This document shows positions 1,588 to 55,784 of a DNA stretch of 64,000 bases, one piece after another. The stretch comes from a virus (taxonomy: Duplodnaviria; Heunggongvirae; Uroviricota; Caudoviricetes). The translations under genes were made by a program, and so were the position numbers. The first letter of the stretch is position 1. Each line of letters opens with the position of its first letter. The stretch covers positions 1-64,000 of the IMG/VR virus record IMGVR_UViG_2529292906_000009; one strand, 5' to 3'. The notes under the pieces are model-generated. The model had not been told where the DNA came from. It was given only the letters and a program-made list of their open reading frames with translations, and ran no database searches.

Positions 1588-3072
1588 TTATTCATTAAGC
1601 CATGCCAGAGCTTCATCAACCTGCGCTTCGTCTTCGACGCTAAGCACTTCATCCTGGGGAACATAATCCGCCAGCATAGCGAAACAATATGTATCCCAAT
1701 GGTCTGGTGAGTGCAGGTTGAGTTTTTTCTTCATATCCTCCTTACTCATCACCTTCCATTGACCTGCGGAGTTAATCCCTACAGGGATTTTCGACGCTTC
1801 CTCAATAGTTTCATTACCCTTATCCAGTCTCATACGACCAGATTTTACGGCCTCTGCGGCTTGAACGTTGGCATAAGCACGTTTATCAAAGTACAGGCTC
1901 TTATCTTCACGGCTATGCATCTTTTTACCCCAGCGTATACGCTGTACGGTAATACCATAATACTCGTACATCAGATCCGCCGTTGCTTTACCCAGCCCAT
2001 CGCCGTCTATCGCTATGGTGATATTTGGGAATCGCTCAGGATTACATTCTGCGAAAATTTTGGCGGCAAGCTGCGTTTCTGTAACGTCTGTGTATTCCAG
2101 CATTCGATAGTTGATTACACGGCGTTTATTTCTCTGGCCGGACACCATCATGATATTGATAACGGACTTATCCCGTCCCGTACCACCAGCAACGTCCACA
2201 CATGCAAGCCAGCCCCATCCTTTGGCAATCTTGACTTTCCGCCGCGTCGCACGTTCAACCTCATCACGTCCAAGAAGGAAGCCATCCTGTGATTTAGGGA
2301 ATAGTCCGCGTACCTTAATCATGTACATAGGGTTATCACGCCCGCCGTACTCCGCCAGCTTCATTTTGATAAATGCTGGCGTTACCAGCGGTGATTCCTC
2401 ACTGTTAAGCGTGATCGCCGTATAAACGCCATCAGGGTTACCAGGACGCTTGGCCAGTTTATGGTGAGTATCGTAGAAATAGCCGCTTGGGCGTGTAGGC
2501 TGTGACAGTAATAAGATGCGGTTATCCTGTCCGGTAAGAGCACCGGTGATGATACCGAAAGCTCTATCACTGACACCGGAGGCTTCATCGATAATATACA
2601 GAAGATGATCTGCGTGTTCACCGGCGAGAGCTTCTTCACTTCCCAGACGAAAGCCCTTCGGTACTACAGTCCATACACCTTTACCAGTAACCTCATAGAA
2701 AGCGGTTTCTGTCAGAACAAAATAATCAGCAAGCCATGGAAAACGGCTGGTGGCAGTAGCCCAGTTTATCTTGATGTACTTGAATATACCGGTCATTACC
2801 TGCTGAATTTTGTTCGCAACGATAATGGCGCGGGCACCGGGATACATGATTATGAACAACATGATCATGATAGAAGTCATGTCTGATTTCCCGGTACCGT
2901 GACCAGACGAAACAGATGTCTTGCTACCCTGTTCCTGCACAGACTCAATAATCAGATCCTGCTGCCAGGTAGGTGTTTTGCCGAACAAAACATCAGCGGC
3001 AGCAATCCAGTCATAACGATATAGCGCCACCAGCTCGCGCCAACGTGGATCCGTTACGCAACTTCTGGCCAT
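1588..3072 (-). CDS. pacB: terminase large subunit (494 aa)
   Basis: Terminase large-subunit fold recognised; start overlaps pacA stop; size equals recalled P1 PacB. Confidence 0.85.
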
Positions 3073-4265
3073 TAATCATCATCCCCGTATAGCTTGCGGG
3101 TAACTTCTTCGTCTTCCTCCTCGTCTTCGTCCAGGTCTTGTTCCAGCCATGGGTCGTTTGATACACCTTCAGTATCAACATCTCCATAACCGCCTGTATC
3201 AACGATATCGGCGATTTCTTCCCTACGCTGCTCAATCCACAATGCGGCATCGGCGCGGCGGTTGGCGGCCCGTTCTCGCGCAACTTTGTCCAGATCTTCA
3301 AGAGAAGGGCCACCGACGGCTGTTTGCCTTTCCTCATCATCGGTATTGGTCTTAGGAGCACGCAGATCGGCTTTGATTTGCTCCAGCATCAGGGGCGGCA
3401 CTTTTCCGCCATGCGCCTCGATGAATTCAGCTGCTTCCAGCACTGACCAGTTATTTTCACGCTTTCGTTCGTATGCCAGCTTAACAATGCCAGCTTGCCC
3501 CATAGATAAAGCGTGCTTTTCCGCCTCCCGGCTTTCTTTTCGATAGTTATTCCGGATGCTGTAAATGGTGTTGATCAGGCTGCTTATCTGCGCGGAACAG
3601 CTGTTTAGCATGCTCGCGATACGATATTCAGGCGGAGTCCCTTCATCATCGTCTTTTTGCTGATCGCGCATTTCCTGCACCAGACGAATACACGTATCCC
3701 TGGCGTTCTCCAGCATAAGGAGATGAGAAAGAGACTTTTCCAGAAGAGTGGTTTCCAGAACATCGGCCCCGGACCGACGCAACATAGCGCGCGCGGCCTT
3801 CCGCGCTTCAACGTTATCTATCAGGTAATCGCCAGCTTCGAATTCAAAGCGTTCACCATCATCATCCAGGGTGTCGCGTTCCAGGCGATCACGTAAGGTC
3901 CGGTGGGCGCGGGTGATCACGTCATGATCATCAGAACGATCATTTATGCGCTTATTTTGGCGCTTCGCATTCTCGACTGCGGCACTGACAACGGCATTAA
4001 CCCTTTGTTTTTCCGCTATTTCAGCCGCAATGTGATCACCTGCATGTTGATCATTAGAGTGATCAATGATCATGCTTTTTAGTGGCTTCCTGACTGGCTT
4101 ATTTGGCTTGCGGCTGTCCGCTGTCCTGGTGTCTTCTTTGAAGGCACGGAGATAACGACGTGCAGTATTAGGGTTAAGATTAAACTCGGCGGCATACTGT
4201 GCGATGGTGTAACCACCATCTCGCGCCAGGCGAGCAAAATTCTTCTTGTGATCGTCCCAGGTCAC
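3072..4265 (-). CDS. pacA: terminase small subunit / pac recognition protein (397 aa)
   Basis: 397-aa ORF with acidic C-terminus upstream of pacB; contains the GATC-rich pac site in its 5' third. Confidence 0.8.
3880..4075. promoter_or_regulatory. pac: pac packaging site: two clusters of four GATC-containing TGATCA-type hexamers
   Basis: GATC at about 3888, 3915, 3926, 3938 and at 4033, 4049, 4060, 4068 inside pacA; matches the known Dam-methylation-regulated P1 pac architecture. Confidence 0.6.
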
Positions 4266-4350
4266 TTATGCTTCCTTTCGTAAAAACTCTTTTTGACGCG
4301 AGGGTAACGAAAGTCACATGTCAAAAGGCCCGGAACGGGCAAGCAATCAA

Positions 4351-4891: not shown

Positions 4892-5935
4892 TTATCTAAC
4901 GCTCGACGAGTGACTTGTGATAGCGCCGACTCCAAGCGCGTAATCAAAGAACAATCGTTGATGCATCGCCAGCCTACCGTGCGTCTTCTCCCAATTATCG
5001 CGGTCACGCTCAATATCACGCTGGCATGACTGGCACAGAGGAATAGCATAAATGTCATGCGCGCATAATCGACTATGACGAACGATATAAGGCGTAATGT
5101 GAGCGCCAGCTCCCGCAGCTCCACAGCCACAGCATGGACGGGAAGCCACAAAGTCCATGTACTCGGGCAATTTTAGCGATTGAAGTTTTGGTATTTTGAA
5201 ATGCGCCATACCTGGGTCGGAGTCAACATCCACAGGGCATACTTTTGCACGCATCGGCGCGGCGCGTTCTTCCATCATCTGAACATATGCTGTAGCGCGA
5301 TCGTCATACGGGCGAATATCCGCCTCTTTCAGAGGTCCGCTATCCTGCGGAGTAGCCTTCATCTTATTTATTGATATGCGGCAGACTTCTTCCGGCATCA
5401 GGTGCATCATGTTGCGCATGAAAGCCCACCAGCACAGCTCCTGAATACTTAAATCATGGCTATTTGAAAGGCCCATTTCCTGACGGGCGACATCCAGTAT
5501 CCAGTTAACGCGATTATTGTGCAGCGTTTCTTTCAGCTCATTAAAACCACGCATCCGGTAATGGTTATCGTGATGCCAGCACAACAACACCGCGCTATTG
5601 TCTCGTTCAGCGTGGACAATATGGTTGTCACACCAACTACGATCTGCGGCCTGGCATTGACCCTCTTTCCTACGCAACCACGCCACCAGCGCGTCAATTC
5701 CACCAATACGGCGAAACAGTTCATCGCTGTTAAAAAACGGCTGCAACGCCTCATTTGTTGCCATGGTTTGCTCGGTAACAACGAGGCCGTCTTCCATGTG
5801 CTCGATTAACTCACGCGGCACCGGCTCCATGATAAATTTACGGCCAGCCTCCACCAGCTTTCTGACCTCCTGATCCACTTTGAACGTGGCGAGGCCAAGC
5901 TCTTTCTGTACAAAGGGAGTAATTACGGCTTTCAC
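4892..5935 (-). CDS. hypothetical protein with Cys-rich C-terminal region (pdcB position)
   Basis: 347-aa ORF between doc and lpa; clustered Cys/His near the C-terminus; name only by synteny with P1. Confidence 0.5.
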
Positions 5936-5962
5936 ATCACACCTTTAATCACTGATTGGGCT

Positions 5963-6142
5963 TTATCTGCTGCCCGGCATTCTCTGTTTAAGCACAACCA
6001 TTTCCTGACGGCATAACACAGCAATAGCGGTCCTGACTCCAATTTGCTTACCAACCAGGTATTGCTTTACCTTGCGGCGACTCACGCCATCAAGAAGCAT
6101 CTTTAACGCTTCACGGGACAATTTGTTGTATTTGCGTGCCAT
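5963..6142 (-). CDS. small basic protein (pdcA position)
   Basis: About 59-aa ORF just downstream of doc; start chosen at the internal Met. Confidence 0.35.
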   Translation of the reverse strand: MARKYNKLSREALKMLLDGVSRRKVKQYLVGKQIGVRTAIAVLCRQEMVVLKQRMPGSR

Positions 6143-6146
6143 TAAT

Positions 6147-6527
6147 CTACTCCGCAGAACCATACAATCTACGTAACGTGTCGGCGACAGAAGATACAGA
6201 TATCTCGCCAGTCGCAGCGCCTACAGTAAGGTCTGCCAGTTCAGGTGAATCAAATACCTGCACCCCGTTACGGCGTAGAAATAGCAGCGCACTGTTTAGC
6301 GCGGTACGCTTATTGGCATCATTGAATATATGCCCTCTCGCTGTAGCCACCAGGTAGGTGGCGGAGACTTCGAAAAGGTCGGTGATCTCTTCGTAGGCAA
6401 CTCTGGCCTGAACTCTCCCGATAATGGCCTCTGCCCTACCCGGATCTGACATTCCCGGCAGGCCGCCGTAGCGGCTTATATTCGCATCATGAAGCGCAAT
6501 AAGTTCTTCCGGTGATATATGCCTCAT
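6147..6527 (-). CDS. doc: Doc toxin (Fic/Doc family), 126 aa
   Basis: Sequence recognised as P1 Doc (death on curing); coupled to phd. Confidence 0.85.
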
Positions 6528-7384: not shown

Positions 7385-7969
7385 ATGCCTAATCGCATTC
7401 CTCTCGCTCCTGTATTGCCCAAAAATTTTGACTGCACTCCTAACGAGAAACGCTCTAAAGCTCAGCTGGACGCCTGGTGGGACCATCCATATGGGGTTAC
7501 ACAACCTGACGGGAAAATTGTAGTTTATTGTCTGAATGGTGGGGCGTGGGACCGTCCATCCGTGCTTTGTTTGGCAGATAACTATGATGAAGCCTGTGAA
7601 CTTGCCGAAAGACAGCAGGCAAGCTGGGTAAAAACACGGTCTGAACCGACATTCATGTTTTCAAAAGAACCGCCATTTATACTGGCGAGGATGCCGCAGC
7701 GACCGGATCATCAACAAGAAATTGTTGCTGAATTTTCCTCTAGGGATGAGATGAATCTCTTCTCATTAAAGCAGGAAGAAAGGGATCGCGTCGAAGTGTC
7801 TCCAACTCTCGACCACAACCGGATGAACCTGGCCCAACTCGCCTGGTACAGCAAAGAATTAGAGATGTCTATTGCCCGACTTGAAAACGAAAAAGCCGCT
7901 ATCCAAGCCCAGCATGAAGTAGTTCTGAACCGGATTAGAGAAATGCAAAACGATAACAGGGGATTTTGA
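7385..7969 (+). CDS. hypothetical protein (194 aa), first gene of a two-gene module downstream of the LexA box
   Basis: Long ORF starting 135 bp from the LexA box; stop overlaps the next start (TGAATG); no recognisable domain. Confidence 0.5.
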   Translation: MPNRIPLAPVLPKNFDCTPNEKRSKAQLDAWWDHPYGVTQPDGKIVVYCLNGGAWDRPSVLCLADNYDEACELAERQQASWVKTRSEPTFMFSKEPPFILARMPQRPDHQQEIVAEFSSRDEMNLFSLKQEERDRVEVSPTLDHNRMNLAQLAWYSKELEMSIARLENEKAAIQAQHEVVLNRIREMQNDNRGF

Positions 7970-8326
7970 ATGGCTAAAATCGAGTACCATCGCGATCGCG
8001 GTAATTACCTGGAAATATACGATCATGAATCTCTTAACGATATCAACGATGCGTTATATGAATACTGTGAAAAAACGAGCATCACAGATGCACCTGATGC
8101 ATTTGTCGAGCTACCGGTATATCTCCGCGACATCTATGCAATACGAACACCGCCCGTATCGGTGATCCACATTGGCTATGTCCGCCTGTCCATCGAAGAA
8201 GATGAAGATCGTTATATCGTGCGCCACTATACATTGGACAGAAAAGAACTTCCTAATGAATGGAACATGAGTAATTTCTACAACGGTGAATATGGCTTAA
8301 AATCCACTAATAATTTACGGTCATAA
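7970..8326 (+). CDS. hypothetical protein (118 aa), coupled to 7385..7969
   Basis: ORF starts on the stop codon of the upstream gene; no recognisable domain. Confidence 0.5.
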   Translation: MAKIEYHRDRGNYLEIYDHESLNDINDALYEYCEKTSITDAPDAFVELPVYLRDIYAIRTPPVSVIHIGYVRLSIEEDEDRYIVRHYTLDRKELPNEWNMSNFYNGEYGLKSTNNLRS

Positions 8327-9188
8327 TCTATACAGGCATGTATAACAACAACGAGCCTATTAGCTGTCAACAACGTTATTTTCTCAAATAAGAAAAAGCA
8401 GAAAACAAATTGTTTAAGGTCACAAATTGTGGCCTTGATGGAGGAGGGAGGCTTATTGGCTATGGCTAAAAATCAAATTAGACACTTCATGTTGCTGTAG
8501 CTCATCAAGATCCGAGGCCACAAAACCTTTTCCGAAAAACTTCACAAGTAACTCACTAGCCGCATCATTGTCACCTATTACACGAAAGTCATACGGCAAC
8601 GTCGCAAGTTGACGATGTAATCCTGCTGAGAAAGTCGAATCTAACAGCGACCAGAATTCCCACCGCAGGATAATACTCGCCTCTTAATACTGTATATATG
8701 TTGTTACGATATGTTTTTCTGTCTCTAAAAAAAGATGTTAATAGAATGCTAACCATTGAAGGGGATAAAAATATACAATTCCAACAAACGTTATTTTTAA
8801 CAATTTTTTTCTTTGCGTTGACTTTCCCGGACACCTTGTCTGACCGAAGGTGCGCGAAAGCCACTTTTTCCTTCCTGAGTTATCCACAAAGTTATGCACT
8901 TGCAAGAGGGCCATTTTCTACATATTGTGGTGGCTAACAGATGAAATGAATGTAGATTAATTGAAGATAAGGAGAAAATTTGAGATGCAATCATGACGTT
9001 AATAGATAGGGTCTGCATTACAGACCCCATCCGCATCAAGGAATTAGCCGTTCCCTGATGTTGTTCCGAAAACATGTGCCGTAAGCTCACGTTAACGACT
9101 TTCTTTCACCGAATCCAACTATATAGGGGTTGGGTTTCTACGTCAACGTGAGCAAGTGCTCCTTTACATTTGACAAGGAACCACCTTA

Positions 9189-9400: not shown

Positions 9401-9757
9401 TCAGCTTTCGTTGGCATTTAACTTCGTCTTTGCTTTCTCCACCAGCAACTTCCAGATGCCTATTTCATTAGCAGCCGCCTTGATGGCGGCATAAAAAGCA
9501 TCTTGCTGATCGTAACGCTGAATCTGTTTTTTCAGTTTTGCCTCCACCAATTTAATTTCATTACGTGCTTTCTGAAGCCGAAGCGCCGCCCGGTTACGTC
9601 TGTTCTTGTATAGCGCGTTAATCTCTGACAATTGCTTTAATTTACCAGCCTGACTGCGGATTATCGCCTCTCTGACTTCTGCCGTGCGTCTCATCTGATC
9701 TCTTAAGAGTTCACCGTTTTCGATAATTCTTTCAAGGTGTTTGATGTGATCTGCAAC
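9401..9757 (-). CDS. hypothetical protein, 5' end separated from its native start by IS2
   Basis: Frame continues from native ATG-AGA-GTT at 11099-11091 across the IS2 insertion; the first 9 codons of the tracked ORF come from the IS2 end. Confidence 0.45.
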   Translation of the reverse strand, partial: VADHIKHLERIIENGELLRDQMRRTAEVREAIIRSQAGKLKQLSEINALYKNRRNRAALRLQKARNEIKLVEAKLKKQIQRYDQQDAFYAAIKAAANEIGIWKLLVEKAKTKLNANES

Positions 9758-9768
9758 TGGATTTGCCC

Positions 9769-10674
9769 CTATATTTCCAGACATCTGTTATCACTTAACC
9801 CATTACAAGCCCGCTGCCGCAGATATTCCCGTGGCGAGCGATAACCCAGCGCACTATGCGGATGCCATTCGTTATAATGCTCGAACGCCTCTGCAAGGTT
9901 CTTTGCTGCCGTTAACCCGTCTGGTTTGGGCATGATACTGATGTAGTCACGCTTTATCGTTTTCACGAAGCTCTCTGCTATTCCGTTACTCTCCGGACTC
10001 CGCACCGCCGTGTTCTTCGGTTCAAGTCCCAACATCCGGGCGAACTGGCGTGTTTCATTAGCCCGGTAGCATGAACCATTATCCGTCAGCCACTCCACTG
10101 GAGACGACGGAAGATCGTTGCCGAAGCGGCGTTCCACCGCTCCCAGCATGACGTCCTGTACTGTTTCACTGTTGAAGCCGCCGGTAGTCACCGCCCAGTG
10201 CAGTGCCTCACGATCACAGCAGTCCAGCGCGAACGTGACACGCAGTCTCTCTCCGTTATCACAGCAGAACTCGAACCCGTCAGAGCACCATCGCTGATTG
10301 CTTTCTTTCACGGCCACTCTGCCTGTATGTGCCCGTTTCGATGGCGGTACAGCAGGTTTTCGCTCAAGCAACAGCGCATTCTGGCGCATGATCCGGTAAA
10401 CACGTTTGGCATTGATCGCAGGCATACCATCAAGTTCTGCCTGTCTGCGAAGCAGCGCCCATACCCGACGATAACCATACGTGGGCAGCTCTCCGATAAC
10501 ATGGTGTATACGGAGAAGCACATCCGTATCATCAGTGTGACGACTGCGGCGGCTATCCATCCAGTCATCGGTTCGTCTGAGAATGACGTGCAACTGCGCA
10601 CGCGACACCCGGAGACAACGGCTGACTAAGCTTACTCCCCATCCCCGGGCAATAAGGGCGCGTGCGCTATCCAC
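9769..10674 (-). CDS. insD: IS2 transposase OrfB (301 aa)
   Basis: Sequence recognised as IS2 InsD (DDE integrase domain). Confidence 0.9.
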
Positions 10675-10997
10675 TTTTTTGCCCGTCCATATTCAACGGC
10701 TTCTTTGAGGAGTTCATTTTCCATCGTTTTCTTGCCGAGCAGGCGCTGGAGTTCTTTAATCTGCTTCATGGCGGCAACAAGTTCAGAGGCAGGAACAACC
10801 TGTTCTCCGGCGGCGACAGCGGTAAGACTTCCTTCCTGGTATTGCTTACGCCAGAGAAATAACTGGCTGGCTGCTACACCATGTTGCCGGGCAACGAGAG
10901 AGACCGTCATCCCCGGTTCAAAGCTCTGCTGAACAATTGCGATCTTTTCCTGTGTGGTACGCCGTCTGCGTTTCTCCGGCCCTAAGACATCAATCAT
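10632..10997 (-). CDS. insC: IS2 OrfA (121 aa, HTH)
   Basis: [18 protein letters not shown]... recognised as IS2 InsC; overlaps insD in the -1 frame as expected for programmed frameshifting. Confidence 0.85.
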
Positions 10998-11095
10998 CTG
11001 TTCTCCAATGACTAGTCTAAAAACTAGTATTAAGACTATCACTTATTTAAGTGATACTGGTTGTCTGGAGATTCAGGGGGCCAGTCTAGCAACTC

Positions 11096-11773
11096 TCATA
11101 CTTCACCCTCGCTTGTATCGCCAGCATCCACCAGCGGCAATAAAGCCCTGGCCATCTTATGAACCAATAGTGCATCAATAATGCCAAGCGTATGCCCCGG
11201 CTTAATGTTTAATGCCGCCTCAAGGTGACACCTTTCCAAGCCACTTTTCTCGGCTTGTTTATGATGATCTGGCGTAATAACGTCGCCCAAAACACGGCTA
11301 ATTCTTTCTCGTAATTGCTGGGTGCCCGCACACTTGATCGCTGTATCGTGGAGACGGTTAACCAGTTCGCGATAAACATGCGGTTTAATGCGGATACGTT
11401 CACCGGTGACGCCCTTTCCTGGCCCTGGCACCGAACTATCCGGAATATCCGGATAGTTGCCAGCCTCGTAAGCTACCCGCAGCCAGTGCATGAATGTTTC
11501 CGCAGACACACAACCGCAGTCCACATCGATTTCCCCGCGTTGCTGCTCCAGCCATTGCTCAAAATCTAACTTGTAAGCATCACTTCCAAGTTGCTCTTTT
11601 TGTCTCAATGTCAGCACCTGTTGGGCTAGTTCCAGAACGATACCGGGTGACGCTAACCTCTCAAATTCCAATAAATAGTTTGCGTCTGGATGACAAGTAG
11701 CTTCCCCTGCAAAAAATACCAGTTGCTGTAAGTATGCTGTCGTTATTGCGGTCATAACTTTATCTCCTTGCAT
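11096..11773 (-). CDS. hypothetical protein (225 aa)
   Basis: ORF whose stop overlaps (ATGA) the native start of the IS2-interrupted downstream gene. Confidence 0.5.
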   Translation of the reverse strand: MQGDKVMTAITTAYLQQLVFFAGEATCHPDANYLLEFERLASPGIVLELAQQVLTLRQKEQLGSDAYKLDFEQWLEQQRGEIDVDCGCVSAETFMHWLRVAYEAGNYPDIPDSSVPGPGKGVTGERIRIKPHVYRELVNRLHDTAIKCAGTQQLRERISRVLGDVITPDHHKQAEKSGLERCHLEAALNIKPGHTLGIIDALLVHKMARALLPLVDAGDTSEGEV

Positions 11774-11982
11774 GGTTCGCCTTTACGGCAAACAGCTACA
11801 CGGTCATTTCTTACATTAACCACAGTCACCGTTCCGTCATCGCATTGAATAACGATGAAAGGGTGTTCATTCTCTTTTGTGCAATGTTGCTGTTCCCCTG
11901 CTGTAACAGTGAGGGGAATTAATAAAATAATAATTACTGCGAATTTACTAAATGTTGTCATAGCAATCTTTCTGTTTTTCAT
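11752..11982 (-). CDS. small secreted protein (signal peptide)
   Basis: N-terminal basic region followed by a hydrophobic stretch ending TVTA-GE; 4 Cys in the mature part. Confidence 0.45.
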   Translation of the reverse strand: MKNRKIAMTTFSKFAVIIILLIPLTVTAGEQQHCTKENEHPFIVIQCDDGTVTVVNVRNDRVAVCRKGEPCKEIKL

Positions 11983-12275
11983 TATGGTTGAATCCAGTTA
12001 TCTTCAATAGCAATGCTCAATCTTTGTAACCATTCTGCTAATTTCAGCATTGCTTCTCTTTCGCTTAAACCACACGGAAAATCATCAAGCGATATTGTTG
12101 GCTTGAAGTTTCCCAAATTATCCATTTCAACGGTCAGATTTTGCTCCAGCACGGTATTCCTTACGCGGCTATTGTGCCGAAGCAAATATACTGAACGTGA
12201 TTTATTGGTTTTGTGGTCGAACGTATATTCGGTAAGTATCATCTGGCTTCCGCCATGATTATTACCGCGCCACAT
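11982..12275 (-). CDS. hypothetical protein
   Basis: ORF in the same-strand operon array; start uncertain. Confidence 0.4.
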   Translation of the reverse strand: MWRGNNHGGSQMILTEYTFDHKTNKSRSVYLLRHNSRVRNTVLEQNLTVEMDNLGNFKPTISLDDFPCGLSEREAMLKLAEWLQRLSIAIEDNWIQP

Positions 12276-12558
12276 AATTACTCCGTGTTAATTTTACTTT
12301 TATCGCGAACACCTTTACCGGTTTATCGCCGAAGTGGGGATGTGTGATTGTCTTGATTTCATATCCGTCATACGGGACGTTAATTCTGCGGCTGGAGTCG
12401 TCGCGCTTCGGATATCCCTTTGTGATAATCAGGCGGTCATACTTACGGTTAACGAGGCGCTTATTCCAATAGTCATTACACAGGCGATACTCTTCCGTTT
12501 TCTCTCTGCGAATCATGGCATCGAAGTATTCACCTTTGACGGCAAGTTGCAGGTTAGC
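12262..12558 (-). CDS. hypothetical protein, possibly ASCH/PUA-like fold (GTG start after AGGAGG)
   Basis: AGGAGG 6 nt upstream of GTG; weak resemblance to small PUA-like phage proteins. Confidence 0.4.
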   Translation of the reverse strand, partial: ANLQLAVKGEYFDAMIRREKTEEYRLCNDYWNKRLVNRKYDRLIITKGYPKRDDSSRRINVPYDGYEIKTITHPHFGDKPVKVFAIKVKLTRSNYVAR

Positions 12559-13192
12559 CACGGTTAACCTCCTGCGGCGGTTCCGGTAGCGGCATCCAGT
12601 GAGTTGCTTGCTCAATACCATTACCCGGCTTAATCGTTGCTTCTCCTCGCCGAAAGGTGCTTCCGGTATAGCGTGCGGAGCATATTAGCGGCTCAACCAG
12701 ATCGCTATCGAAATTCACCGAAATAAGTACGTTCTGATTCTTTTTCGGCATTCGCTCACTACAGCTTATCCAACCATCCGGAGTTACCGGAGAGTTGCCA
12801 TTTACATCGAAGTTTGGCTCTGCGTCCTGAACCAGGAGGATGTAACCATTCTTGGCTGTATCAAGTTCTAACGCCTCGGTGACGGTGCCGAAATAGCGAT
12901 TACCTAAATCAGCATCACAAGTGCTTACATCAATGGAAACTTCCATGCCTTCGATTAATTCTGGCAAGTTGTAAGTTTGGCTTACAGGCTCTGCTTCCAG
13001 CGATGCCAGCACAATTCGTGCCAACTCACGCACAACTTCAGGGGGCGCGTGACGGTCATTCAGGTCATCCCACAGACGTAGCATGTTATCGCTACCAGGG
13101 TGAACATCCTCATTAGTTCCGGCCAGCGCACTAATAACCTCATCGGCTGCTTCAATAATTTTCTGTGCCTGTTCTCTGGTAATAGTGGTCAT
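12554..13192 (-). CDS. phage protein with DUF551-like C-terminal domain
   Basis: C-terminal ...ATHWMPLPEPPQE motif typical of DUF551 proteins of enterobacterial prophages. Confidence 0.5.
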   Translation of the reverse strand: MTTITREQAQKIIEAADEVISALAGTNEDVHPGSDNMLRLWDDLNDRHAPPEVVRELARIVLASLEAEPVSQTYNLPELIEGMEVSIDVSTCDADLGNRYFGTVTEALELDTAKNGYILLVQDAEPNFDVNGNSPVTPDGWISCSERMPKKNQNVLISVNFDSDLVEPLICSARYTGSTFRRGEATIKPGNGIEQATHWMPLPEPPQEVNRG

Positions 13193-13398
13193 TTGTTAAT
13201 CCTCAAAACTTTATGCCCGGGCGCAAAAGCACGTGTTTTGTCTTTACTTATTCGCCACCCGTCTTTACGGGCCTCTTTTGCACAACCAGACCATGACGTA
13301 CCGATATACTCACCGAAGTCTGGCACTGGATATACACCTTCCGTACACTGGCGGCAGTCACAATAGAGATGCATGGTGTAACTTGCAGCGATAGCCAT
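13189..13398 (-). CDS. small Cys-rich hypothetical protein (69 aa)
   Basis: ORF from the internal Met; CxC...C...C pattern. Confidence 0.4.
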   Translation of the reverse strand: MAIAASYTMHLYCDCRQCTEGVYPVPDFGEYIGTSWSGCAKEARKDGWRISKDKTRAFAPGHKVLRINK

Positions 13399-13399
13399 A

Positions 13400-13990
13400 T
13401 CACTCTCCTTTGATGCGAATGCCAGGGGCGCGTGGCACATTAACTTCCACGATGCGCACAGTTGGTTTGTACATCTCAATCGCAGTCAGCCAGTCAGCGC
13501 CAGTCATGCGCTTTTCTGCATCGCCATTAGTCCACTTAACCGGTACACCAATAGCCTTCATCGCGATTTCTATTTCCCCGGCAATGGCGCTTTTTCCGCA
13601 ACCAGTAAAACCAGATACAACGACCAGAACTTCACCTTTGGCTGGTTTTATTTCCCGCGCTTCCAGTTCTGCTATGCGCTTACTTCCATCCGAGATAACA
13701 CCTTCGTAATACTCACGCTGCTCGTTGAGTTTTGATTTTGCTTCCTCAAGCTCAACTCTCAGCTTCCCTACCGTTAGCGCAATATCCTCGTTCTCCTGGT
13801 CGCGGGATTTGATGTATTGCTGGTTCCTTTCCCGTTCATCCAGTAGTGCCAGCACGGTTTCTGGCGAAAAGTGCTTCATAAAATCGTTAAGCGCATTAAT
13901 TCGCTGATCGAAAGGCATTACAGGTGCTTCACCAGCAATTTTTGTTTTTTCAGCGATTTCACGAAGCTTTTGATAATCAATCTTGCTCAC
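13400..13990 (-). CDS. Ead/Ea22-like protein with C-terminal P-loop-like motif
   Basis: N-terminus MSKIDYQKLREIAEK... resembles Ea22/Ead family; C-terminal GFTGCGKS motif. Confidence 0.5.
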   Translation of the reverse strand: MSKIDYQKLREIAEKTKIAGEAPVMPFDQRINALNDFMKHFSPETVLALLDERERNQQYIKSRDQENEDIALTVGKLRVELEEAKSKLNEQREYYEGVISDGSKRIAELEAREIKPAKGEVLVVVSGFTGCGKSAIAGEIEIAMKAIGVPVKWTNGDAEKRMTGADWLTAIEMYKPTVRIVEVNVPRAPGIRIKGE

Positions 13991-14721
13991 TGGTTGCCTC
14001 CTTTGCGAAGCTGGGCAGCAAAGTCAACTAACCACTCAGTCATTTCAACCTTCCCTACCAGGTCTGAACCAGGGTGCATACAGCAATCACTCTGCGCCGC
14101 TTTGAAATCCTTATACTCATATTCTTGGGCCACCAGATTTTTTGCAGCTTCTATAGCAGCATCCACGCCCTGCGCCCGCACTTCAGCCAGGAAAGCATCG
14201 GTGGCTGGCATATTTCCTGTTGCCTTCATGGCCTCCAAAATAACCAGAACGCCATCTCGCCCAACCACCTCAGCGATAACCTCGGTGTTGTCGCCAACAA
14301 CATCGCAGAATGCCTGAACTGCCTTACGAGCCAGCTCATTCTCCACTGCCAGCGCCGTGCGATTACCCTCCAGCTCTGCAATGCGCTGTTTTGCGGCATC
14401 CAGTTCAATCGACAATTTTTCCAACTGCTCTTGATGCTTCTTGTATTCCTGATATGCGTGCCAAGACTGACCTTTGCGCACACTATCAGTGATATCAGTA
14501 ATCTGTTCTGGTGTTAGCGTGATCAGTGGCTGTGATGGGAAAATAAGCACTTTCCCGGAATCCCAATCAAAACCAGCGTGAATTGACTGAACCTCAACTG
14601 AAGGTGTTGAACCAATGCTGCCAGGCGAATGAACAACGATTGTTACATCCATATCGCGACGATGGCTGTGGTTGTTGGACAAAATACGATTCACCAACTC
14701 AGAAAATTTGGAAAATTTCAT
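13987..14721 (-). CDS. Ead/Ea22-like coiled-coil protein
   Basis: Central coiled-coil and C-terminal PATDAFLAEVRAQG motif shared with 15005..15880. Confidence 0.5.
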   Translation of the reverse strand: MKFSKFSELVNRILSNNHSHRRDMDVTIVVHSPGSIGSTPSVEVQSIHAGFDWDSGKVLIFPSQPLITLTPEQITDITDSVRKGQSWHAYQEYKKHQEQLEKLSIELDAAKQRIAELEGNRTALAVENELARKAVQAFCDVVGDNTEVIAEVVGRDGVLVILEAMKATGNMPATDAFLAEVRAQGVDAAIEAAKNLVAQEYEYKDFKAAQSDCCMHPGSDLVGKVEMTEWLVDFAAQLRKGGNQ

Positions 14722-15041
14722 GCTGATTCCCCTTTCTCTGCTCTCTCCTGTCGGAACATCACTATCATCAGGTCGCCTTTTGTCGCTATCCTGGCTGTTG
14801 TACCTGGTTCAATGCGGCTAAGCTCAAATGCGTCATAGAACGCTTCTAATGCCTTCTGGCGTAGTTCCTGTTTGCGCCGTTTTTTCCACTGTTTTAGGAA
14901 AATGGAACCCAGCCATCGCCATGTGCGGGACATGATGTAAAGCCAACCGAGAAGTGCCAGACCGGTATTTAGGAGCGTATCGATCGTTATTGTCGTGTCG
15001 ATATTCACTGGCTGCTTCCTTTGCGAATCTGTTCCGCCCAT
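14718..15041 (-). CDS. small membrane protein
   Basis: One hydrophobic segment followed by a basic stretch. Confidence 0.4.
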   Translation of the reverse strand: MGGTDSQRKQPVNIDTTITIDTLLNTGLALLGWLYIMSRTWRWLGSIFLKQWKKRRKQELRQKALEAFYDAFELSRIEPGTTARIATKGDLMIVMFRQERAEKGESA

Positions 15042-15880
15042 TCTTCAAGGGATTTCTCCGCATATTCACCAGACAGGCCATCAATCGGATGCGCTTCATT
15101 AGCCAACTCTTCTTTCGCTGACAAAATCATGCGTGTAACGTCGAAAACTTCACGCAAAGACTTATTGATAAATCCGTGATTGAACGCAGCAGCAAGACGG
15201 CTGGCGGTATAGTTAATCCCCTCGTTGCGTGCTTCCGCACGAATTTCAGACAGGAAAGCATCGGTGGCTGGGGTTTCGACATTAGGTCGAAGCTCATAAT
15301 CACAAACTCTTTCAATCCATGGTGATACTCTGTCGCATTTCCTCTTCTTGCGTTCACCGACCTTGGTTGCCTGCTGAATAATTACCCCCCAGCAAATGCT
15401 TTCGACCTCTTCGCTCCATCCATCGCAAGCATCGCCTCTATAGTCGTCAATTGCAGCCTCAGCAGCAGCGATAGCCTCCTCAGCAGTTTTGTGACACTCG
15501 AAACTAAATTCAGAGCCATATGAGAAATACATAGCCCCGGCCTTCAGCGCCGCATTCTCCGCTGCCAGCGCCGCGAGATTAGTCTCAAGCTCTGCAATTC
15601 GACACATAGCATCAATATTTGTGTCCTCCAGGCGCTTAATTTCACCAAGCAGCTCCAGTGCAACCTTTGGGTTGAACGCGGCAACATAACGAGCGTTGTT
15701 CTCTGCATTTTTCTGTCCATCAAAGCCGGTCCATTTGATAACGTCTTCACATCGTTCATCACCGGGCGTGTGCACCGCATAAGTACCAGTATCCGTCGAA
15801 ATAAATGCGACCCATTCGTCTGGTGTTGCCTTTTCTGCCGCCTCACGCAGTACCTGATAGTCAATTGTCATTCTCGCCAT
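15005..15880 (-). CDS. Ead/Ea22-like protein
   Basis: MARMTIDYQVLREAAEKAT... N-terminus and PATDAFLSEIRAE motif shared with 13987..14721. Confidence 0.5.
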   Translation of the reverse strand: MARMTIDYQVLREAAEKATPDEWVAFISTDTGTYAVHTPGDERCEDVIKWTGFDGQKNAENNARYVAAFNPKVALELLGEIKRLEDTNIDAMCRIAELETNLAALAAENAALKAGAMYFSYGSEFSFECHKTAEEAIAAAEAAIDDYRGDACDGWSEEVESICWGVIIQQATKVGERKKRKCDRVSPWIERVCDYELRPNVETPATDAFLSEIRAEARNEGINYTASRLAAAFNHGFINKSLREVFDVTRMILSAKEELANEAHPIDGLSGEYAEKSLEEWAEQIRKGSSQ

Positions 15881-16512
15881 CCTTCACAGTTGTAATCACT
15901 ACAGCCTTCAAAATCATATGGGCTGTACTGCCAGGTTATTTTTCCGCAATGCGGACAATTCCAACGCACCTTCCCGCTTCGCGACTTCTTTCTTCTGTTT
16001 TGCTTTTTCAACCAGTCAGGCATGACCAAACCTGCGCCCTGAACCATTGTTCTGCGGTTAAAGTTATTGATATTGAACGTCCGGCGCTTTGCTGCATCAG
16101 CAATGGAAAATGGCAACCAAACTATTCCTGGTTCGTTTTTGTTGGCGACGCTAAAGATGGTCGCTTTACTGAAGTCATCTGTTGGCAATCCACCGTGTTG
16201 AAGCCAGTAAACATCGTTGCCGTTCCAGCTACCTTTTTTGTAGGCCACATACGCAGTGCAATCTGACTCAATCAGGCTTTCTGTAGGGATGTACTGGCAA
16301 TCAACGTGCCACACAGCCATTGCATCCACGCTATCAGCGCAAACAGGCTGATCGATATCTCGTCCACAATTCCAGGCTTTTTGGGCTGCTTCCAGCGTGT
16401 AAACATGAGCGCGATCGATATCAGAACTGTAACCATTGCCGTTATGGCAATGGAATGAGGCGTTATTACCCACAGTTTCACGCAAGCACATCATGTAAAA
16501 GCGGTTATTCAC
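15868..16512 (-). CDS. hypothetical protein with C-terminal Cys4 zinc-ribbon-like motif
   Basis: CPHCG...C...C near the C-terminus. Confidence 0.45.
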   Translation of the reverse strand: MNNRFYMMCLRETVGNNASFHCHNGNGYSSDIDRAHVYTLEAAQKAWNCGRDIDQPVCADSVDAMAVWHVDCQYIPTESLIESDCTAYVAYKKGSWNGNDVYWLQHGGLPTDDFSKATIFSVANKNEPGIVWLPFSIADAAKRRTFNINNFNRRTMVQGAGLVMPDWLKKQNRRKKSRSGKVRWNCPHCGKITWQYSPYDFEGCSDYNCEGWRE

Positions 16513-16720
16513 TGGATGCCTCCCAGCAAATTTGTCTTATATAAGAACTGTTAACGCGCTTTACTTTCCCGTCGAACTCCAGTTTCTTTAGACGACGCAA
16601 AACGTATGCCGTTTTGAGTGTGCGATATTTATCCCTAAGCCAGTTGGTCACGACGTAAGTCATACAGCGCCCGTGTTCTTCCAACACCCGAACTATTTCT
16701 TCGTCGGTTGGCTTGCTCAT
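16505..16720 (-). CDS. small hypothetical protein
   Basis: ORF in operon array. Confidence 0.4.
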   Translation of the reverse strand: MSKPTDEEIVRVLEEHGRCMTYVVTNWLRDKYRTLKTAYVLRRLKKLEFDGKVKRVNSSYIRQICWEASSE

Positions 16721-16938
16721 TTTGTCGCTCCTTCAGCTTTCTCTACTTTCGCTGCCATGATTTCCAGCTTTTGTGCTGCCGATGCCGCTAACCTGTGAAA
16801 TTCTTCATCTGTTTCAACTGGAATTGGTACAAACCTGACACCAATTTGAGCAAGGCTATGCGCCATTTCGAGACTTGCTCTTAACTCTGCTGGGGATGCT
16901 TTATTCAGGCCGACTTCCTCACAAATAACTGATTGCAT
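16717..16938 (-). CDS. small hypothetical protein
   Basis: ORF in operon array. Confidence 0.4.
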   Translation of the reverse strand: MQSVICEEVGLNKASPAELRASLEMAHSLAQIGVRFVPIPVETDEEFHRLAASAAQKLEIMAAKVEKAEGATK

Positions 16939-16947
16939 ACGCTCGCC

Positions 16948-17553
16948 CTACTGAATACGCTCAAACTCGATTACCCAAACCCAGGGATTAGCACTCCAGC
17001 TTTCTTCGCCGTAGATGGATTCCCACAGGCGCTGGAACGCAACCTTGGCCATTGCGAAATCCCCCTTGGGAGTAAGGAATGTTCCCGGGTGATCAGGAAG
17101 CAAACTTCCAGCAGGCGGAACGCCCTCATCCCTTGCATCGCATTCGCTGATATCGTTCAACCGCTCAACGCGCACGTTGGTAATTTCCAGAAGAATGCGC
17201 GATGCCCAGCGCGGCATGTGAATTGATGGCGTCCACTTTTCTGATACTGGTTTATTACAAACCTCGACCGGAACCCGGTGCGTTTGTTCTGTCCAGGAGT
17301 TACGCACGCTTGCGCGATAAACCAGCGTTGCGACGTCCGTCGCTTTGCCATGTACCCGGTAGGTTTCGCGAACCCAAATACGATCGCCCGGTTGACCATA
17401 TGGACAATGCTTGGCAAGCAACTCTGCGGCCACTGCCCGTCCATAGAATTTTTCTTCAACAATCCTGCGAGTCTGTGTTTTATTCCCGCCAAGAATTGCC
17501 CGGACCATCTCATCGTTAAAAATCATGCCGCGCTCTTTCACTTCGCCTTTCAT
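16948..17553 (-). CDS. hypothetical protein (201 aa)
   Basis: ORF in operon array; no confident domain call. Confidence 0.45.
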   Translation of the reverse strand: MKGEVKERGMIFNDEMVRAILGGNKTQTRRIVEEKFYGRAVAAELLAKHCPYGQPGDRIWVRETYRVHGKATDVATLVYRASVRNSWTEQTHRVPVEVCNKPVSEKWTPSIHMPRWASRILLEITNVRVERLNDISECDARDEGVPPAGSLLPDHPGTFLTPKGDFAMAKVAFQRLWESIYGEESWSANPWVWVIEFERIQ

Positions 17554-17731: not shown

Positions 17732-17748
17732 AGATTTATTAGAGCAAT
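17732..17748 (-). promoter_or_regulatory. C1 operator (16/17)
   Basis: agatttattagagcaat read directly. Confidence 0.6.
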
Positions 17749-53079: not shown

Positions 53080-53800
53080 CATAGTTTCTTTTTGTGCACA
53101 GAAAACCCCCAGCTAGGCTGGGGGTTCCGGAAAGCTTTCAGCTTTGAGCCAGTTATTAAAACCCCTTTTGATTTGTTAAAACACCTTGCGGTCTGGCAAC
53201 TGCAAGTGTCAAACAAGAAATCAAAAGGGGGTCCCAATGGGGAACGAAAAGAGCTTAGCGCACACCCGATGGAACTGTAAATATCACATAGTTTTTGCGC
53301 CAAAATACCGAAGACAAGTGTTCTACAGAGAGAAACGTAGAGCAATAGGCAGTATTTTGAGAAAGCTGTGCGAGTGGAAAAGCGTACGGATTCTTGAAGC
53401 TGAATGCTGTGCAGATCATATCCATATGCTTGTGGAGATCCCGCCCAAAATGAGCGTATCCGGCTTTATGGGATATCTGAAAGGGAAAAGCAGTCTGATG
53501 CTTTACGAGCAGTTTGGTGATTTGAAATTCAAATACAGGAACAGGGAGTTCTGGTGCAGAGGGTACTACGTCGATACGGTGGGTAAGAACACGGCGAAGA
53601 TACAGGATTACATAAAGCACCAGCTTGAAGAGGATAAAATGGGAGAGCAGTTATCGATTCCCTATCCGGGCAGCCCGTTTACGGGCCGTAAGTAACGAAG
53701 TTGGATGCAAATGTCAGATCGTGTGCGCCTGTTAGGGCGCGGCTGGTAAGAGAGCCTTATAGGCGCATTTGAAAAACCTCCGGCTATGCCGGAGGATATT
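53080..53800 (+). mobile_element. IS200-like element (IS200/IS605 family), boundaries approximate
   Basis: Y1 transposase gene preceded by a perfect hairpin aacccccagc-tagg-ctgggggtt; about 709 bp would restore the kilA frame. Confidence 0.7.
53237..53695 (+). CDS. tnpA: IS200 transposase TnpA (Y1 HuH, 152 aa)
   Basis: MGNEKSLAHTRWNCKYHIVFAPKYRR... recognised as IS200-type TnpA with HxH and catalytic Tyr region. Confidence 0.85.
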   Translation: MGNEKSLAHTRWNCKYHIVFAPKYRRQVFYREKRRAIGSILRKLCEWKSVRILEAECCADHIHMLVEIPPKMSVSGFMGYLKGKSSLMLYEQFGDLKFKYRNREFWCRGYYVDTVGKNTAKIQDYIKHQLEEDKMGEQLSIPYPGSPFTGRK

Positions 53801-54094: not shown

Positions 54095-54111
54095 AAATTT
54101 ATTAGAGCAAA
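54095..54111 (-). promoter_or_regulatory. C1 operator (16/17) upstream of kilA
   Basis: aaatttattagagcaaa read directly. Confidence 0.6.
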
Positions 54112-55479: not shown

Positions 55480-55760
55480 CAACCTGCGACCCGCTGTCAA
55501 ACAGGTGGCAGGACGTGACAGGGTTGACAGACTGGCACTTACGAAACCAGCAGGCCGAAGCCTCCCCATCACGCCCCACCATAATTCGGGCGTAACGTGG
55601 TTTTACGGACACAAAAATACCGCAATATCGGAAATGTGCGGTTGTCCGCGTAAGTATTCAGGCTGTCAAACCTGGTCGCAGAATTTGCTGCGACGGCGGA
55701 ACTATAAGCCTGAACGATTAAAAGGTCAATATGATGCGAAAAGATAGCATTCGTGACTTA
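55480..55760 (-). ncRNA. c4: region expected to encode the c4 antisense RNA and its target repeats (boundaries not resolved)
   Basis: Lies between the operator and icd as in P1 immI; repeated TTGACAG-type motifs and their complements. Confidence 0.3.
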
Positions 55761-55767
55761 AAAATAC

Positions 55768-55784
55768 AAATTTATTAGAGCATT
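55768..55784 (-). promoter_or_regulatory. C1 operator (16/17) upstream of the immI operon
   Basis: aaatttattagagcatt read directly. Confidence 0.6.

Follow-up and report, generated by a model that had tools for sequence, protein, structure and literature searches.

IS2 insertion near the start of pmgV in a P1-like phage-plasmid and its probable consequence for the gene

The pmgT operon and the element that interrupts it

The DNA considered here (the window) comprises 64,000 nucleotides, namely, positions 1 to 64,000 of IMG/VR virus record IMGVR_UViG_2529292906_000009 (Caudoviricetes). The features that bear on the present analysis are listed in Table 1. The C1 repressor operator OpmgT marks the start of a C1-repressed pmgT operon of approximately 8 kb, in which pmgV is the last gene. 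Judged by the sequences of its genes and operator, this is the pmgT-pmgU-pmgV operon of phage P1 (Punavirus), from which it differs in having some 5 kb of additional accessory genes between pmgT and pmgU. The C-terminal 111 residues of the pmgU-like protein are 94% identical to P1 PmgU, while the protein as a whole is 80% identical to a 310-residue protein of the P1-like plasmid pQ502. The interrupted gene is P1 pmgV, encoding a protein of 120 residues, and its body is 100% identical to that of pQ502 and differs from that of P1 at a single nucleotide. Searches of Pfam and NCBIfam returned no family for either PmgV or the pmgU-like protein, and both fall into PHROGs families of 'unknown function' only. 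Downstream, the homologues of upfM and upfN have a predicted promoter of their own, equivalent to PupfN (TTGACG-17-TATAGT, at 9146-9118). Because no gene of the operon follows pmgV and upfM and upfN are predicted to be transcribed separately, any polarity exerted by an insertion at this point would matter only for pmgV.

The native start of pmgV is still recognizable. The stop codon of the pmgU-like gene and the start codon of pmgV overlap as ATGA (11096-11099), a 4-nucleotide overlap of coding sequences that is likewise annotated at the pmgU/pmgV junction of P1 and pQ502, and a GAGG Shine-Dalgarno sequence lies 7 nucleotides upstream of the start, inside the upstream gene (duplex with the anti-Shine-Dalgarno sequence, -8.1 kcal/mol). 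This arrangement is that of a pair of genes predicted to be translationally coupled.

Between two copies of GCAAC, direct reading of the sequence reveals an element of exactly 1331 bp on the minus strand, oriented in the same direction as the operon that it interrupts. On that strand, the element starts with TAGACTGGCCCCC and ends with GGGGCAAATCCA. Its termini are imperfect inverted repeats (31 of 42 positions identical, with one gap, upon alignment), the left repeat (IRL) having the 5' end 5'-TAGACTGG and the right repeat (IRR) the 3' end ...AATCCA-3', and their lengths match the 42 and 41 bp given for IS2 (PMC3299598). The orfA and orfB products are matched over their full lengths by the NCBIfam models 'IS2 repressor TnpA' (274 bits; cut-off, 229) and 'IS2 transposase TnpB' (725 bits; cut-off, 597), respectively, and a -1 slip at the A6G motif, where the two reading frames overlap, yields an open OrfAB frame of 409 residues. 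At the DNA level, identity is 100% over all 1331 bp to Escherichia coli copies annotated as 'IS3-like element IS2 family transposase'. In length, repeats, reading frames with the A6G motif, 5-bp duplication and identity, the element is therefore IS2 (IS3 family, IS2 group), as had been proposed in an earlier note on this DNA. IS2 matches covering at least 80% of the element were found in 4059 genomes, and the median is four copies per E. coli genome. Two plasmids of 97,453 bp also carry an IS2 that is 100% identical to the present copy, at another locus.

Table 1. Positions of the features of the interrupted pmgT operon in the window
Feature	Positions	Strand	Basis
Fused ORF, 127 aa: MSGNIGANP (9 IS2 codons) and pmgV codons 3-120	9401..9784	-	ORF list, sequence; WP_000016372.1 in nr
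Target-site duplication, copy 1, GCAAC (GTTGC on gene strand)	9753..9757		sequence; single copy in empty sites of relatives
Complete IS2 (IRL at 11088, IRR at 9758)	9758..11088	-	100% identity to annotated IS2; NCBIfam TnpA/TnpB above cut-off
IRR, IS2 right inverted repeat, 41 bp, adjoining pmgV body	9758..9798	-	alignment; PMC3299598
IS2 orfB (insD, DDE/rve catalytic domain), 301 aa	9769..10674	-	ORF list, Pfam rve and rve_3, NCBIfam
Putative outward -35-like hexamer TGGAAA in IRR, Pjunc -35 half	9774..9779	-	placed by the geometry in PMC3299598
IS2 orfA (insC/TnpA repressor), 121 aa	10632..10997	-	ORF list, Pfam HTH_Tnp_1, NCBIfam
A6G (AAAAAAG) programmed -1 frameshift site, IS position 409	10674..10680	-	sequence reading
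PIRL, weak native extended -10 promoter (TGATAGTCT), 3' of IRL	11041..11033	-	position per PMC3299598
IRL, IS2 left inverted repeat, 42 bp	11047..11088	-	alignment to IRR; position per PMC3299598
Orphaned native pmgV start, now MRVARLAP-stop, ending in IRL	11073..11099	-	sequence reading
Target-site duplication, copy 2, GCAAC	11089..11093		sequence; comparison to relatives
pmgU-like gene, 225 aa	11096..11773	-	ORF list; protein comparison to P1 PmgU and pQ502
pmgT	16948..17553	-	OpmgT directly upstream; start context identical to P1
C1 repressor operator OpmgT (Op88), ATTGCTCTAATAAATCT	17732..17748	-	identical to P1 operator

The empty site and the recency of the insertion

An empty site of 456 bp was reconstructed in silico by removing IS2 together with one GCAAC copy. 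This sequence is present without interruption in 192 of 5426 complete E. coli genomes at 99-100% identity (100% in two), almost all of the copies residing on P1-like phage-plasmids of 90-100 kb, with pQ502 offering the best match. As these relatives carry the contiguous site with a single GCAAC, the repeat that flanks IS2 is a real duplication and not a chance resemblance; the comparison with IS-free relatives, which the earlier note had named as the test of its proposed duplication, thus came out in favor of that proposal. The duplicated nucleotides are nucleotides 7-11 of pmgV (GTTGC), with IS2 standing after nucleotide 11. As the earlier note had it, IS2 thus lies a few nucleotides past a stop/start-overlapping gene junction. 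Its description of the ATGA as restored by removal of IS2 needs adjustment, in that the overlap is still intact. Likewise, the downstream ORF is indeed interrupted near its start, but what it has lost is continuity after nucleotide 11.

Many matches to the empty site are partial, with similarity ending approximately 30 nucleotides upstream of the pmgU stop codon in about 146 of 340 matching E. coli records, such that this type of pmgV is absent there. Since the breaks do not fall at the IS2 site, these matches give no sign that the junction is a recurrent hot spot of insertion or recombination.

The IS2/pmgV junction itself is rare. It is absent from the 5426 complete E. coli genomes, PLSDB and INPHARED, and, when sought as an exact pattern, from GTDB representative genomes, IMG/VR and JGI metagenomes. 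Whereas native PmgV is encoded on at least 1000 Logan contigs, the protein that results from the fusion of IS2 and pmgV sequences is known only as RefSeq entry WP_000016372.1 and from one Logan contig of 905 bp (SRR094144; 3 samples). Given the undecayed pmgV body, the complete identity of the IS2 to other copies and the absence of the junction elsewhere, the insertion appears from these sequences to be recent and private to its strain.

Could the junction instead be an error of assembly, with a multicopy IS2 having been misplaced into a plasmid that in reality carries an intact pmgV? An element with a median of four copies per genome is a classic source of mis-joins. Mis-assembly would not, however, flank the element with two perfect copies of a 5-bp sequence that relatives contain only once. 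Moreover, the IRR/pmgV junction recurs in the Logan data, an independent short-read assembly, and RefSeq lists the fused protein. The probability of an artefact is accordingly negligible.

Reading frames and promoter elements at the IS2/pmgV junction

The native ATG of pmgV now opens a frame of only eight codons that terminates inside the left end of IS2. At the other end of the element, an ATG (9784-9782) located 27 nucleotides inside the right end is in frame with the pmgV body, giving rise to a fused ORF that begins MSGNIGANP and continues VADHIKHLER..., as the earlier note had correctly read. In this fusion, two native residues (Met-Arg) are replaced by nine foreign ones. The orfB stop codon (TAG, 9771-9769) lies 10 nucleotides downstream of the ATG of the fused ORF. 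The ribosome-binding site available to this start is poor (-3.1 kcal/mol, as compared to -8.1 kcal/mol at the native start), and in a predicted fold, IS2 sequence near the fused start is base-paired with the flank. The case is of practical use chiefly for annotation, in that the 127-residue 'hypothetical protein' WP_000016372.1 is an IS2::pmgV fusion artefact rather than a protein in its own right.

The earlier note had further proposed that IS2 supplies an outward hybrid promoter, so that the gene is re-wired rather than silenced. Were this so, an outward -35 in IRR together with a -10 in the flank would transcribe pmgV independently of C1. The orientation is as required, with IRR adjoining pmgV, and IRR is known to contribute the -35 of Pjunc, the promoter that forms at the minicircle junction (PMC3299598, PMC9330008), and to have provided the -35 of fusion promoters at ampC, acrEF and neoR (PMC9330008). 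In IRR of the present copy, the hexamer TGGAAA is the probable -35, as it would lie 17 bp from the TAGACT of IRL in a minicircle junction with a 1-bp spacer, following the rule in PMC3299598. To this extent the proposal stands. The flank, by contrast, offers no -10 at 15-19 bp from TGGAAA. The hexamers found at these spacings (AGTTGC, GTTGCA, TTGCAG, TGCAGA and GCAGAT) match TATAAT at only one or two of six positions, with neither A2 nor T6 nor an extended TG. Pjunc tolerates only a 17-bp spacer (PMC3299598), and at that distance lies TTGCAG (9756..9751), a 2/6 match. A scan with promoter consensus sequences similarly detected no promoter-like site at the IS2/pmgV junction.

Position argues against re-wiring as well. 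TGGAAA falls within codons 2-4 of the fused ORF, and a transcript initiated from this -35 would consequently lack the fused ATG. Indeed, the native ATG and the ATG from IS2 would both lie upstream of its 5' end, with the next in-frame start being codon 24 of pmgV. At pmgV, a hybrid promoter hence excludes the fused ORF, and vice versa. Of the components of a fusion promoter, the junction provides an outward -35, in the form of the putative hexamer, and neither a -10 in the flank nor a ribosome-binding site and start codon within the transcript. No new promoter was created at pmgV::IS2, where the flank is devoid of a -10, and activation of pmgV by such a promoter is highly improbable.

Probable loss of PmgV and comparison with known IS2 insertions

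Taken together, these observations very probably reflect a recent insertion of IS2 into a dispensable gene, in which pmgV was most likely switched off and not re-wired, with an effect that is probably close to neutral. In this sequence of events, a transposition-competent IS2 would have entered nucleotides 7-11 of pmgV by the normal pathway, generating the 5-bp duplication. The insertion has cut the body of pmgV off from the native Shine-Dalgarno sequence, the native ATG and the coupling to the pmgU-like gene. Ribosomes that initiate at the native ATG would make an eight-residue peptide, while the body could be translated only from the ATG within IS2, as the 127-residue fusion. Such translation would call for RNA that reads through the whole of IS2, initiated at the phage operon promoter or at PIRL, which is weak and repressed by OrfA. 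Moreover, the roughly 0.9 kb of orfB that precede the fused start would be mostly untranslated and probably open to Rho-dependent termination. The net effect would be that PmgV is lost or strongly reduced.

The element, its duplication, the empty site, the identity of the genes, the reading frame and the lack of a -10 in the flank are shown by the sequences; polarity, low translation and neutrality are inferred. In a P1 CRISPRi screen, and in prior work cited there, pmgV was scored as non-essential (PMC10695390), and the region around the gene is one of eight that are hypervariable among P1-like phage-plasmids (PMC9603915). As pmgV is dispensable for growth of P1 and is found in such an accessory region, the insertion was probably nearly neutral.

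A different outcome was also considered, namely, that read-through RNA, originating at PIRL in the lysogen and at PpmgT after induction, yields useful amounts of the 127-residue protein, perhaps with translation of this protein coupled to termination of either orfB or orfAB, such that pmgV is retained and weakly de-repressed. The fused ORF is in frame and open, the pmgV body has not decayed, and just two native residues are missing. A scan for intrinsic terminators identified none within IS2 or at the right end of the element, and with the intact fused ORF this means that some read-through yielding a near-full-length protein is possible. As the ATG lies so close to the end of orfB, coupling of the fusion to orfB by termination and reinitiation is conceivable. 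Nonetheless, an in-frame outcome is expected by chance in one-third of same-orientation insertions, and an undecayed body fits equally well with an insertion that is recent, as suggested by the identity of the IS2 to other copies and by the private nature of the event. The weak Shine-Dalgarno sequence and the predicted pairing around the fused start speak against efficient initiation. Furthermore, not only is PIRL weak and repressed by OrfA, but translation of orfB depends on a rare frameshift (PMC3299598), so that few ribosomes would reach the site of coupling and the long untranslated stretch would invite Rho-dependent termination. A useful fusion protein is thus unlikely.

Less likely still is a general version of this outcome, in which the ATG at the right end of IS2, 27 nucleotides from the tip and overlapping the end of orfB, produces an N-terminal fusion in one-third of the cases in which IS2 enters a gene in the same orientation. 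For pmgV, the result would be a low, C1-independent level of near-full-length PmgV that is tied to transcription and translation of the transposase. On this reading, the built-in outward ATG of IS2 would cause the lysogen to express a phage gene of the lytic phase.

With loss of PmgV being the preferred reading, pmgV::IS2 is a routine IS knockout. It represents one more strain-private IS2 insertion in a non-essential accessory gene of a P1-like phage-plasmid and, as such, matters little. Classical IS2 mutagenesis of P1 was reportedly performed by Sengstag, Shepherd and Arber in 1983, with a hot target for IS2 being described. IS2 insertions in P1-like phage-plasmids are known as well, for example, sit::IS2 in pSvP1 (PMC6906374). 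The present case shares with these the common element, the 5-bp duplication, the kind of replicon and the interruption of a phage gene. It differs in that the target is pmgV, at nucleotide 11, and in that the junction is absent from the collections of complete genomes, plasmids and phages searched.

IS2 is also known to create fusion promoters, as in ampC::IS2 (Jaurin and Normark, 1983), acrEF and neoR (reviewed in PMC9330008). In common with these, the right end of IS2 faces the downstream gene and the outward -35 is correctly oriented. At pmgV, however, no usable -10 lies in the flank at 15-19 bp, and the insertion is in a coding sequence and not in a promoter region, such that no start codon would be present in a hybrid transcript. 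Activation cannot be concluded from an outward -35 in an IS end alone; the distance to a -10, and where that -35 stands relative to a usable start codon, need to be checked as well.

The classical IS2 insertions in gal and lac are polar mutations in operons. The insertion described here resembles them in that a distal gene has been parted from its promoter and from translational coupling, and differs from them in that the interrupted gene is the last of its operon.

Structure of the element and its insertion site

The element lying between the pmgU-like gene and pmgV is an intact IS2 and, judging from its sequence, is presumably active. Its termini align as imperfect inverted repeats of 42 bp on the left (IRL) and 41 bp on the right (IRR, adjoining the pmgV body), the lengths published for IS2 (PMC3299598); the alignment has a single gap and identity at 31 of 42 positions. 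The orfA and orfB products matched, over their full lengths, the NCBIfam entries 'IS2 repressor TnpA' (274 bits vs a cut-off of 229) and 'IS2 transposase TnpB' (725 bits vs a cut-off of 597), respectively. Present once in the window, the element is 100% identical across all 1331 bp to annotated IS2 copies of other E. coli, a near-full-length copy being found in 4059 of 5426 complete E. coli genomes. In the 97,453-bp E. coli plasmid NZ_CP066033.1, an IS2 of 100% identity occupies an unrelated locus (2698-4331), where a CDS annotated as 'hypothetical protein' reaches ~80 nt into the left end of IS2, likely another IS-fusion annotation artefact.

Coordinates of features considered in the window
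Feature	Position	Strand	Description
IS2	9758..11088	minus	1331 bp; starts TAGACTGGCCCCCTGAATCTCC, ends GGAAATATAGGGGCAAATCCA (read on the minus strand)
GCAAC direct repeats	9753-9757 and 11089-11093		flank IS2 on both sides
orfA	10997..10632	minus	121 aa; Pfam HTH_Tnp_1
orfB	10674..9769	minus	301 aa; Pfam rve/rve_3
AAAAAAG slippery site	10680..10674	minus	-1 slip gives an open 409-aa OrfAB
Fused ORF (IS2::pmgV)	9401..9784	minus	127 aa; IS2 right-end codons plus pmgV body
OpmgT (C1 operator of the pmgT operon)	17732-17748		ATTGCTCTAATAAATCT; upstream of the operon, as in P1
pmgT start	17553		upstream, as in P1
C1-operator-like sites (examples)	138-154, 17732-17748, 33841-33857, 37363-37379, 54095-54111, 55768-55784		

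The earlier note had described an IS2 flanked by GCAAC at 9753-11099, as found here, and had taken the repeats to be a target duplication. A 456-bp empty-site query, from which IS2 and one GCAAC had been deleted, was used to search complete E. coli genomes. The site was recovered in one piece in 192 genomes at 95.6-100% identity (100% twice), nearly always on plasmids of 90-100 kb. The refuting check proposed in the earlier note thus favours a true insertion: as the site is uninterrupted in relatives, the duplication is confirmed and there is no need to invoke a coincidental 5-bp match at the two ends (1 in 1024). The duplication spans pmgV nucleotides 7-11 (ATG AGA GTT GC).

The pmgT operon in a P1-like phage-plasmid

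The window is a P1-like phage-plasmid, with plasmid pQ502 of E. coli Q5 as its nearest complete relative. Homologues of pacA/pacB, lpa, pdcB, doc/phd, humD and lxr are found at 1.5-8 kb, and 13 C1-operator-like sites were detected vs 0.3 expected (17-bp consensus, at most 3 mismatches); the site at 33841-33857 is a perfect match and overlaps a second site on the opposite strand. Also seen were the C4 antisense RNA and its a1/b1 targets of the P1 immI region (55501-55586 and 55655-55707, minus strand; above gathering thresholds), three tRNA genes corresponding to the P1 set (Met (CAT), Thr (TGT) and Asn (GTT); 31309-31384 and 33021-33174, minus strand) and a strong Rfam hit to the Hfq-binding sRNA STnc490 (53104-53227, plus strand; 146 bits vs a gathering score of 56). 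Positions 7919-8850 lack similarity to P1, the P1 segment carrying hot (a Pol III theta homologue) and upfO being substituted; a 118-aa plus-strand ORF (7970..8326) follows lxr.

The flank below IS2 matches P1 pmgV at 99.5%, with the pmgV body past the duplication being identical to pQ502 and differing from P1 at one nucleotide. The 225-aa protein encoded above IS2 is PmgU-like, its C-terminal 111 residues being 94% identical to P1 PmgU and its whole length 80% identical to a 310-aa pQ502 protein. P1 'pmgU' (111 aa) equates to only the C-terminal half of the longer genes of relatives (225 aa at window 11096-11773; 310 aa in pQ502) and overlaps pmgT by ~200 nt in a different frame (P1 record 5203-6272). 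The P1 pmgT/pmgU arrangement has the look of one derived by deletion or recombination. In both P1 and pQ502, the pmgU and pmgV CDSs overlap by 4 nt, in agreement with the gene junction assigned earlier; the ATGA overlap persists in the window (11096-11099), with GAGG 7 nt upstream of the ATG.

Because OpmgT and the pmgT start lie upstream, pmgV is the final gene of an operon under C1 repression, enlarged to ~8 kb by ead/Ea22-like, DUF551 and other accessory genes. Some 5 kb of such lambdoid-type genes, including ones of unknown function, are extra vs P1, lie between pmgT and the pmgU-like gene (11773-17553, minus strand) and appear to be entirely inside the C1-controlled operon. The window pmgT is shortened (201 aa vs 309 aa in P1). 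Downstream, the upfM/upfN homologues retain their own predicted promoter (TTGACG-17-TATAGT, 9146-9118), corresponding to P1 PupfN.

Reading frames, promoters and predicted loss of PmgV

The native pmgV start remains well placed (SD/anti-SD duplex of -8.1 kcal/mol) and now reads ATG AGA GTT GCT AGA CTG GCC CCC TGA (MRVARLAP-stop), terminating in the IS2 left end. As the earlier note had it, the downstream gene reads out of IS2 in frame: the right end holds ATG TCT GGA AAT ATA GGG GCA AAT CCA, in frame with GTT GCA GAT. The ribosome-binding site of this fused-ORF start is poor, the best duplex amounting to -3.1 kcal/mol, and the orfB stop lies 10 nt downstream of the fused-ORF ATG; the next canonical in-frame start is pmgV codon 24.

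It had also been proposed that an outward hybrid promoter formed by the IS2 end may re-wire pmgV rather than leave it silenced. The orientation of IS2 is permissive, and its right end bears the outward -35 half of the minicircle-junction promoter Pjunc, active only with the 17-bp spacer made by a 1-bp junction (PMC3299598). IS2 fusion promoters, known at ampC, acrEF and neoR, depend on the target offering a -10 at the right spacing (PMC9330008). When the two ends are abutted (...TGGAAA-TATAGGGGCAAATCCA-x-TAGACT...) and the spacing rule from the literature is applied, the inferred -35 is TGGAAA (window 9779-9774). At spacers of 15-19 bp, however, the pmgV flank presents AGTTGC, GTTGCA, TTGCAG, TGCAGA and GCAGAT, each matching TATAAT at one or two of six positions, and no extended TG; nor did a consensus scan detect a promoter-like site at the IS2/pmgV junction. 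Moreover, the deduced -35 sits within codons 2-4 of the fused ORF, so that any RNA started from a promoter of this kind would lack the fused-ORF ATG; fused ORF and hybrid promoter cannot both operate. Re-wiring is, therefore, not supported, and the earlier interpretation holds only in part, the observation itself being confirmed.

Instead, pmgV RNA would now arise solely by read-through of the entire IS2, either from the operon promoter once C1 is inactivated or, in the lysogen, from PIRL, the native IS2 promoter, which is weak and repressed by OrfA (PMC3299598). As orfB requires a rare frameshift, most ribosomes would halt where orfA ends, and ~0.9 kb of RNA would be left largely untranslated, the kind of stretch on which Rho-dependent polarity typically acts; a scan of the element found no intrinsic terminator. 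Such polarity, together with the weak fused start, predicts that PmgV is lost or strongly reduced, with a fusion protein bearing nine foreign N-terminal residues being made in traces at most.

Age, dispensability and parallels

The IS2/pmgV junction was absent from the 5426 complete E. coli genomes, PLSDB, INPHARED, GTDB representative genomes, IMG/VR and JGI metagenomes. Native 120-aa PmgV is found on at least 1000 contigs. The fused protein is present in nr (WP_000016372.1) and on a 905-bp Logan contig (SRR094144; 3 samples) that breaks 28 nt inside IS2. These independently confirm the junction and argue against its mis-assembly. The undecayed pmgV body and the identity of IS2 to other copies indicate an insertion that is recent and strain-private.

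PmgV has no family in Pfam or NCBIfam and belongs to phrog_4403 ('unknown function') in PHROGs. In P1, pmgV was non-essential in a genome-wide CRISPRi screen and in earlier work cited there (PMC10695390), and its region is one of eight hypervariable regions in P1-like phage-plasmids (PMC9603915). In ~146 of 340 matching E. coli records, similarity to the empty site ends ~30 nt short of the pmgU stop, and this pmgV type is therefore absent from them; the position is a recombination boundary, and past it another gene takes the place of this pmgV.

Here a dispensable accessory gene has been inactivated by a routine IS2 insertion, an event of a familiar type and of little interest. IS2 mutagenesis of P1, reportedly carried out by Sengstag et al. 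in 1983, is classical. IS2 insertions have already been described in P1-like plasmids, one example being sit::IS2 in pSvP1, which, like the window insertion, involves IS2 with a 5-bp duplication (PMC6906374).
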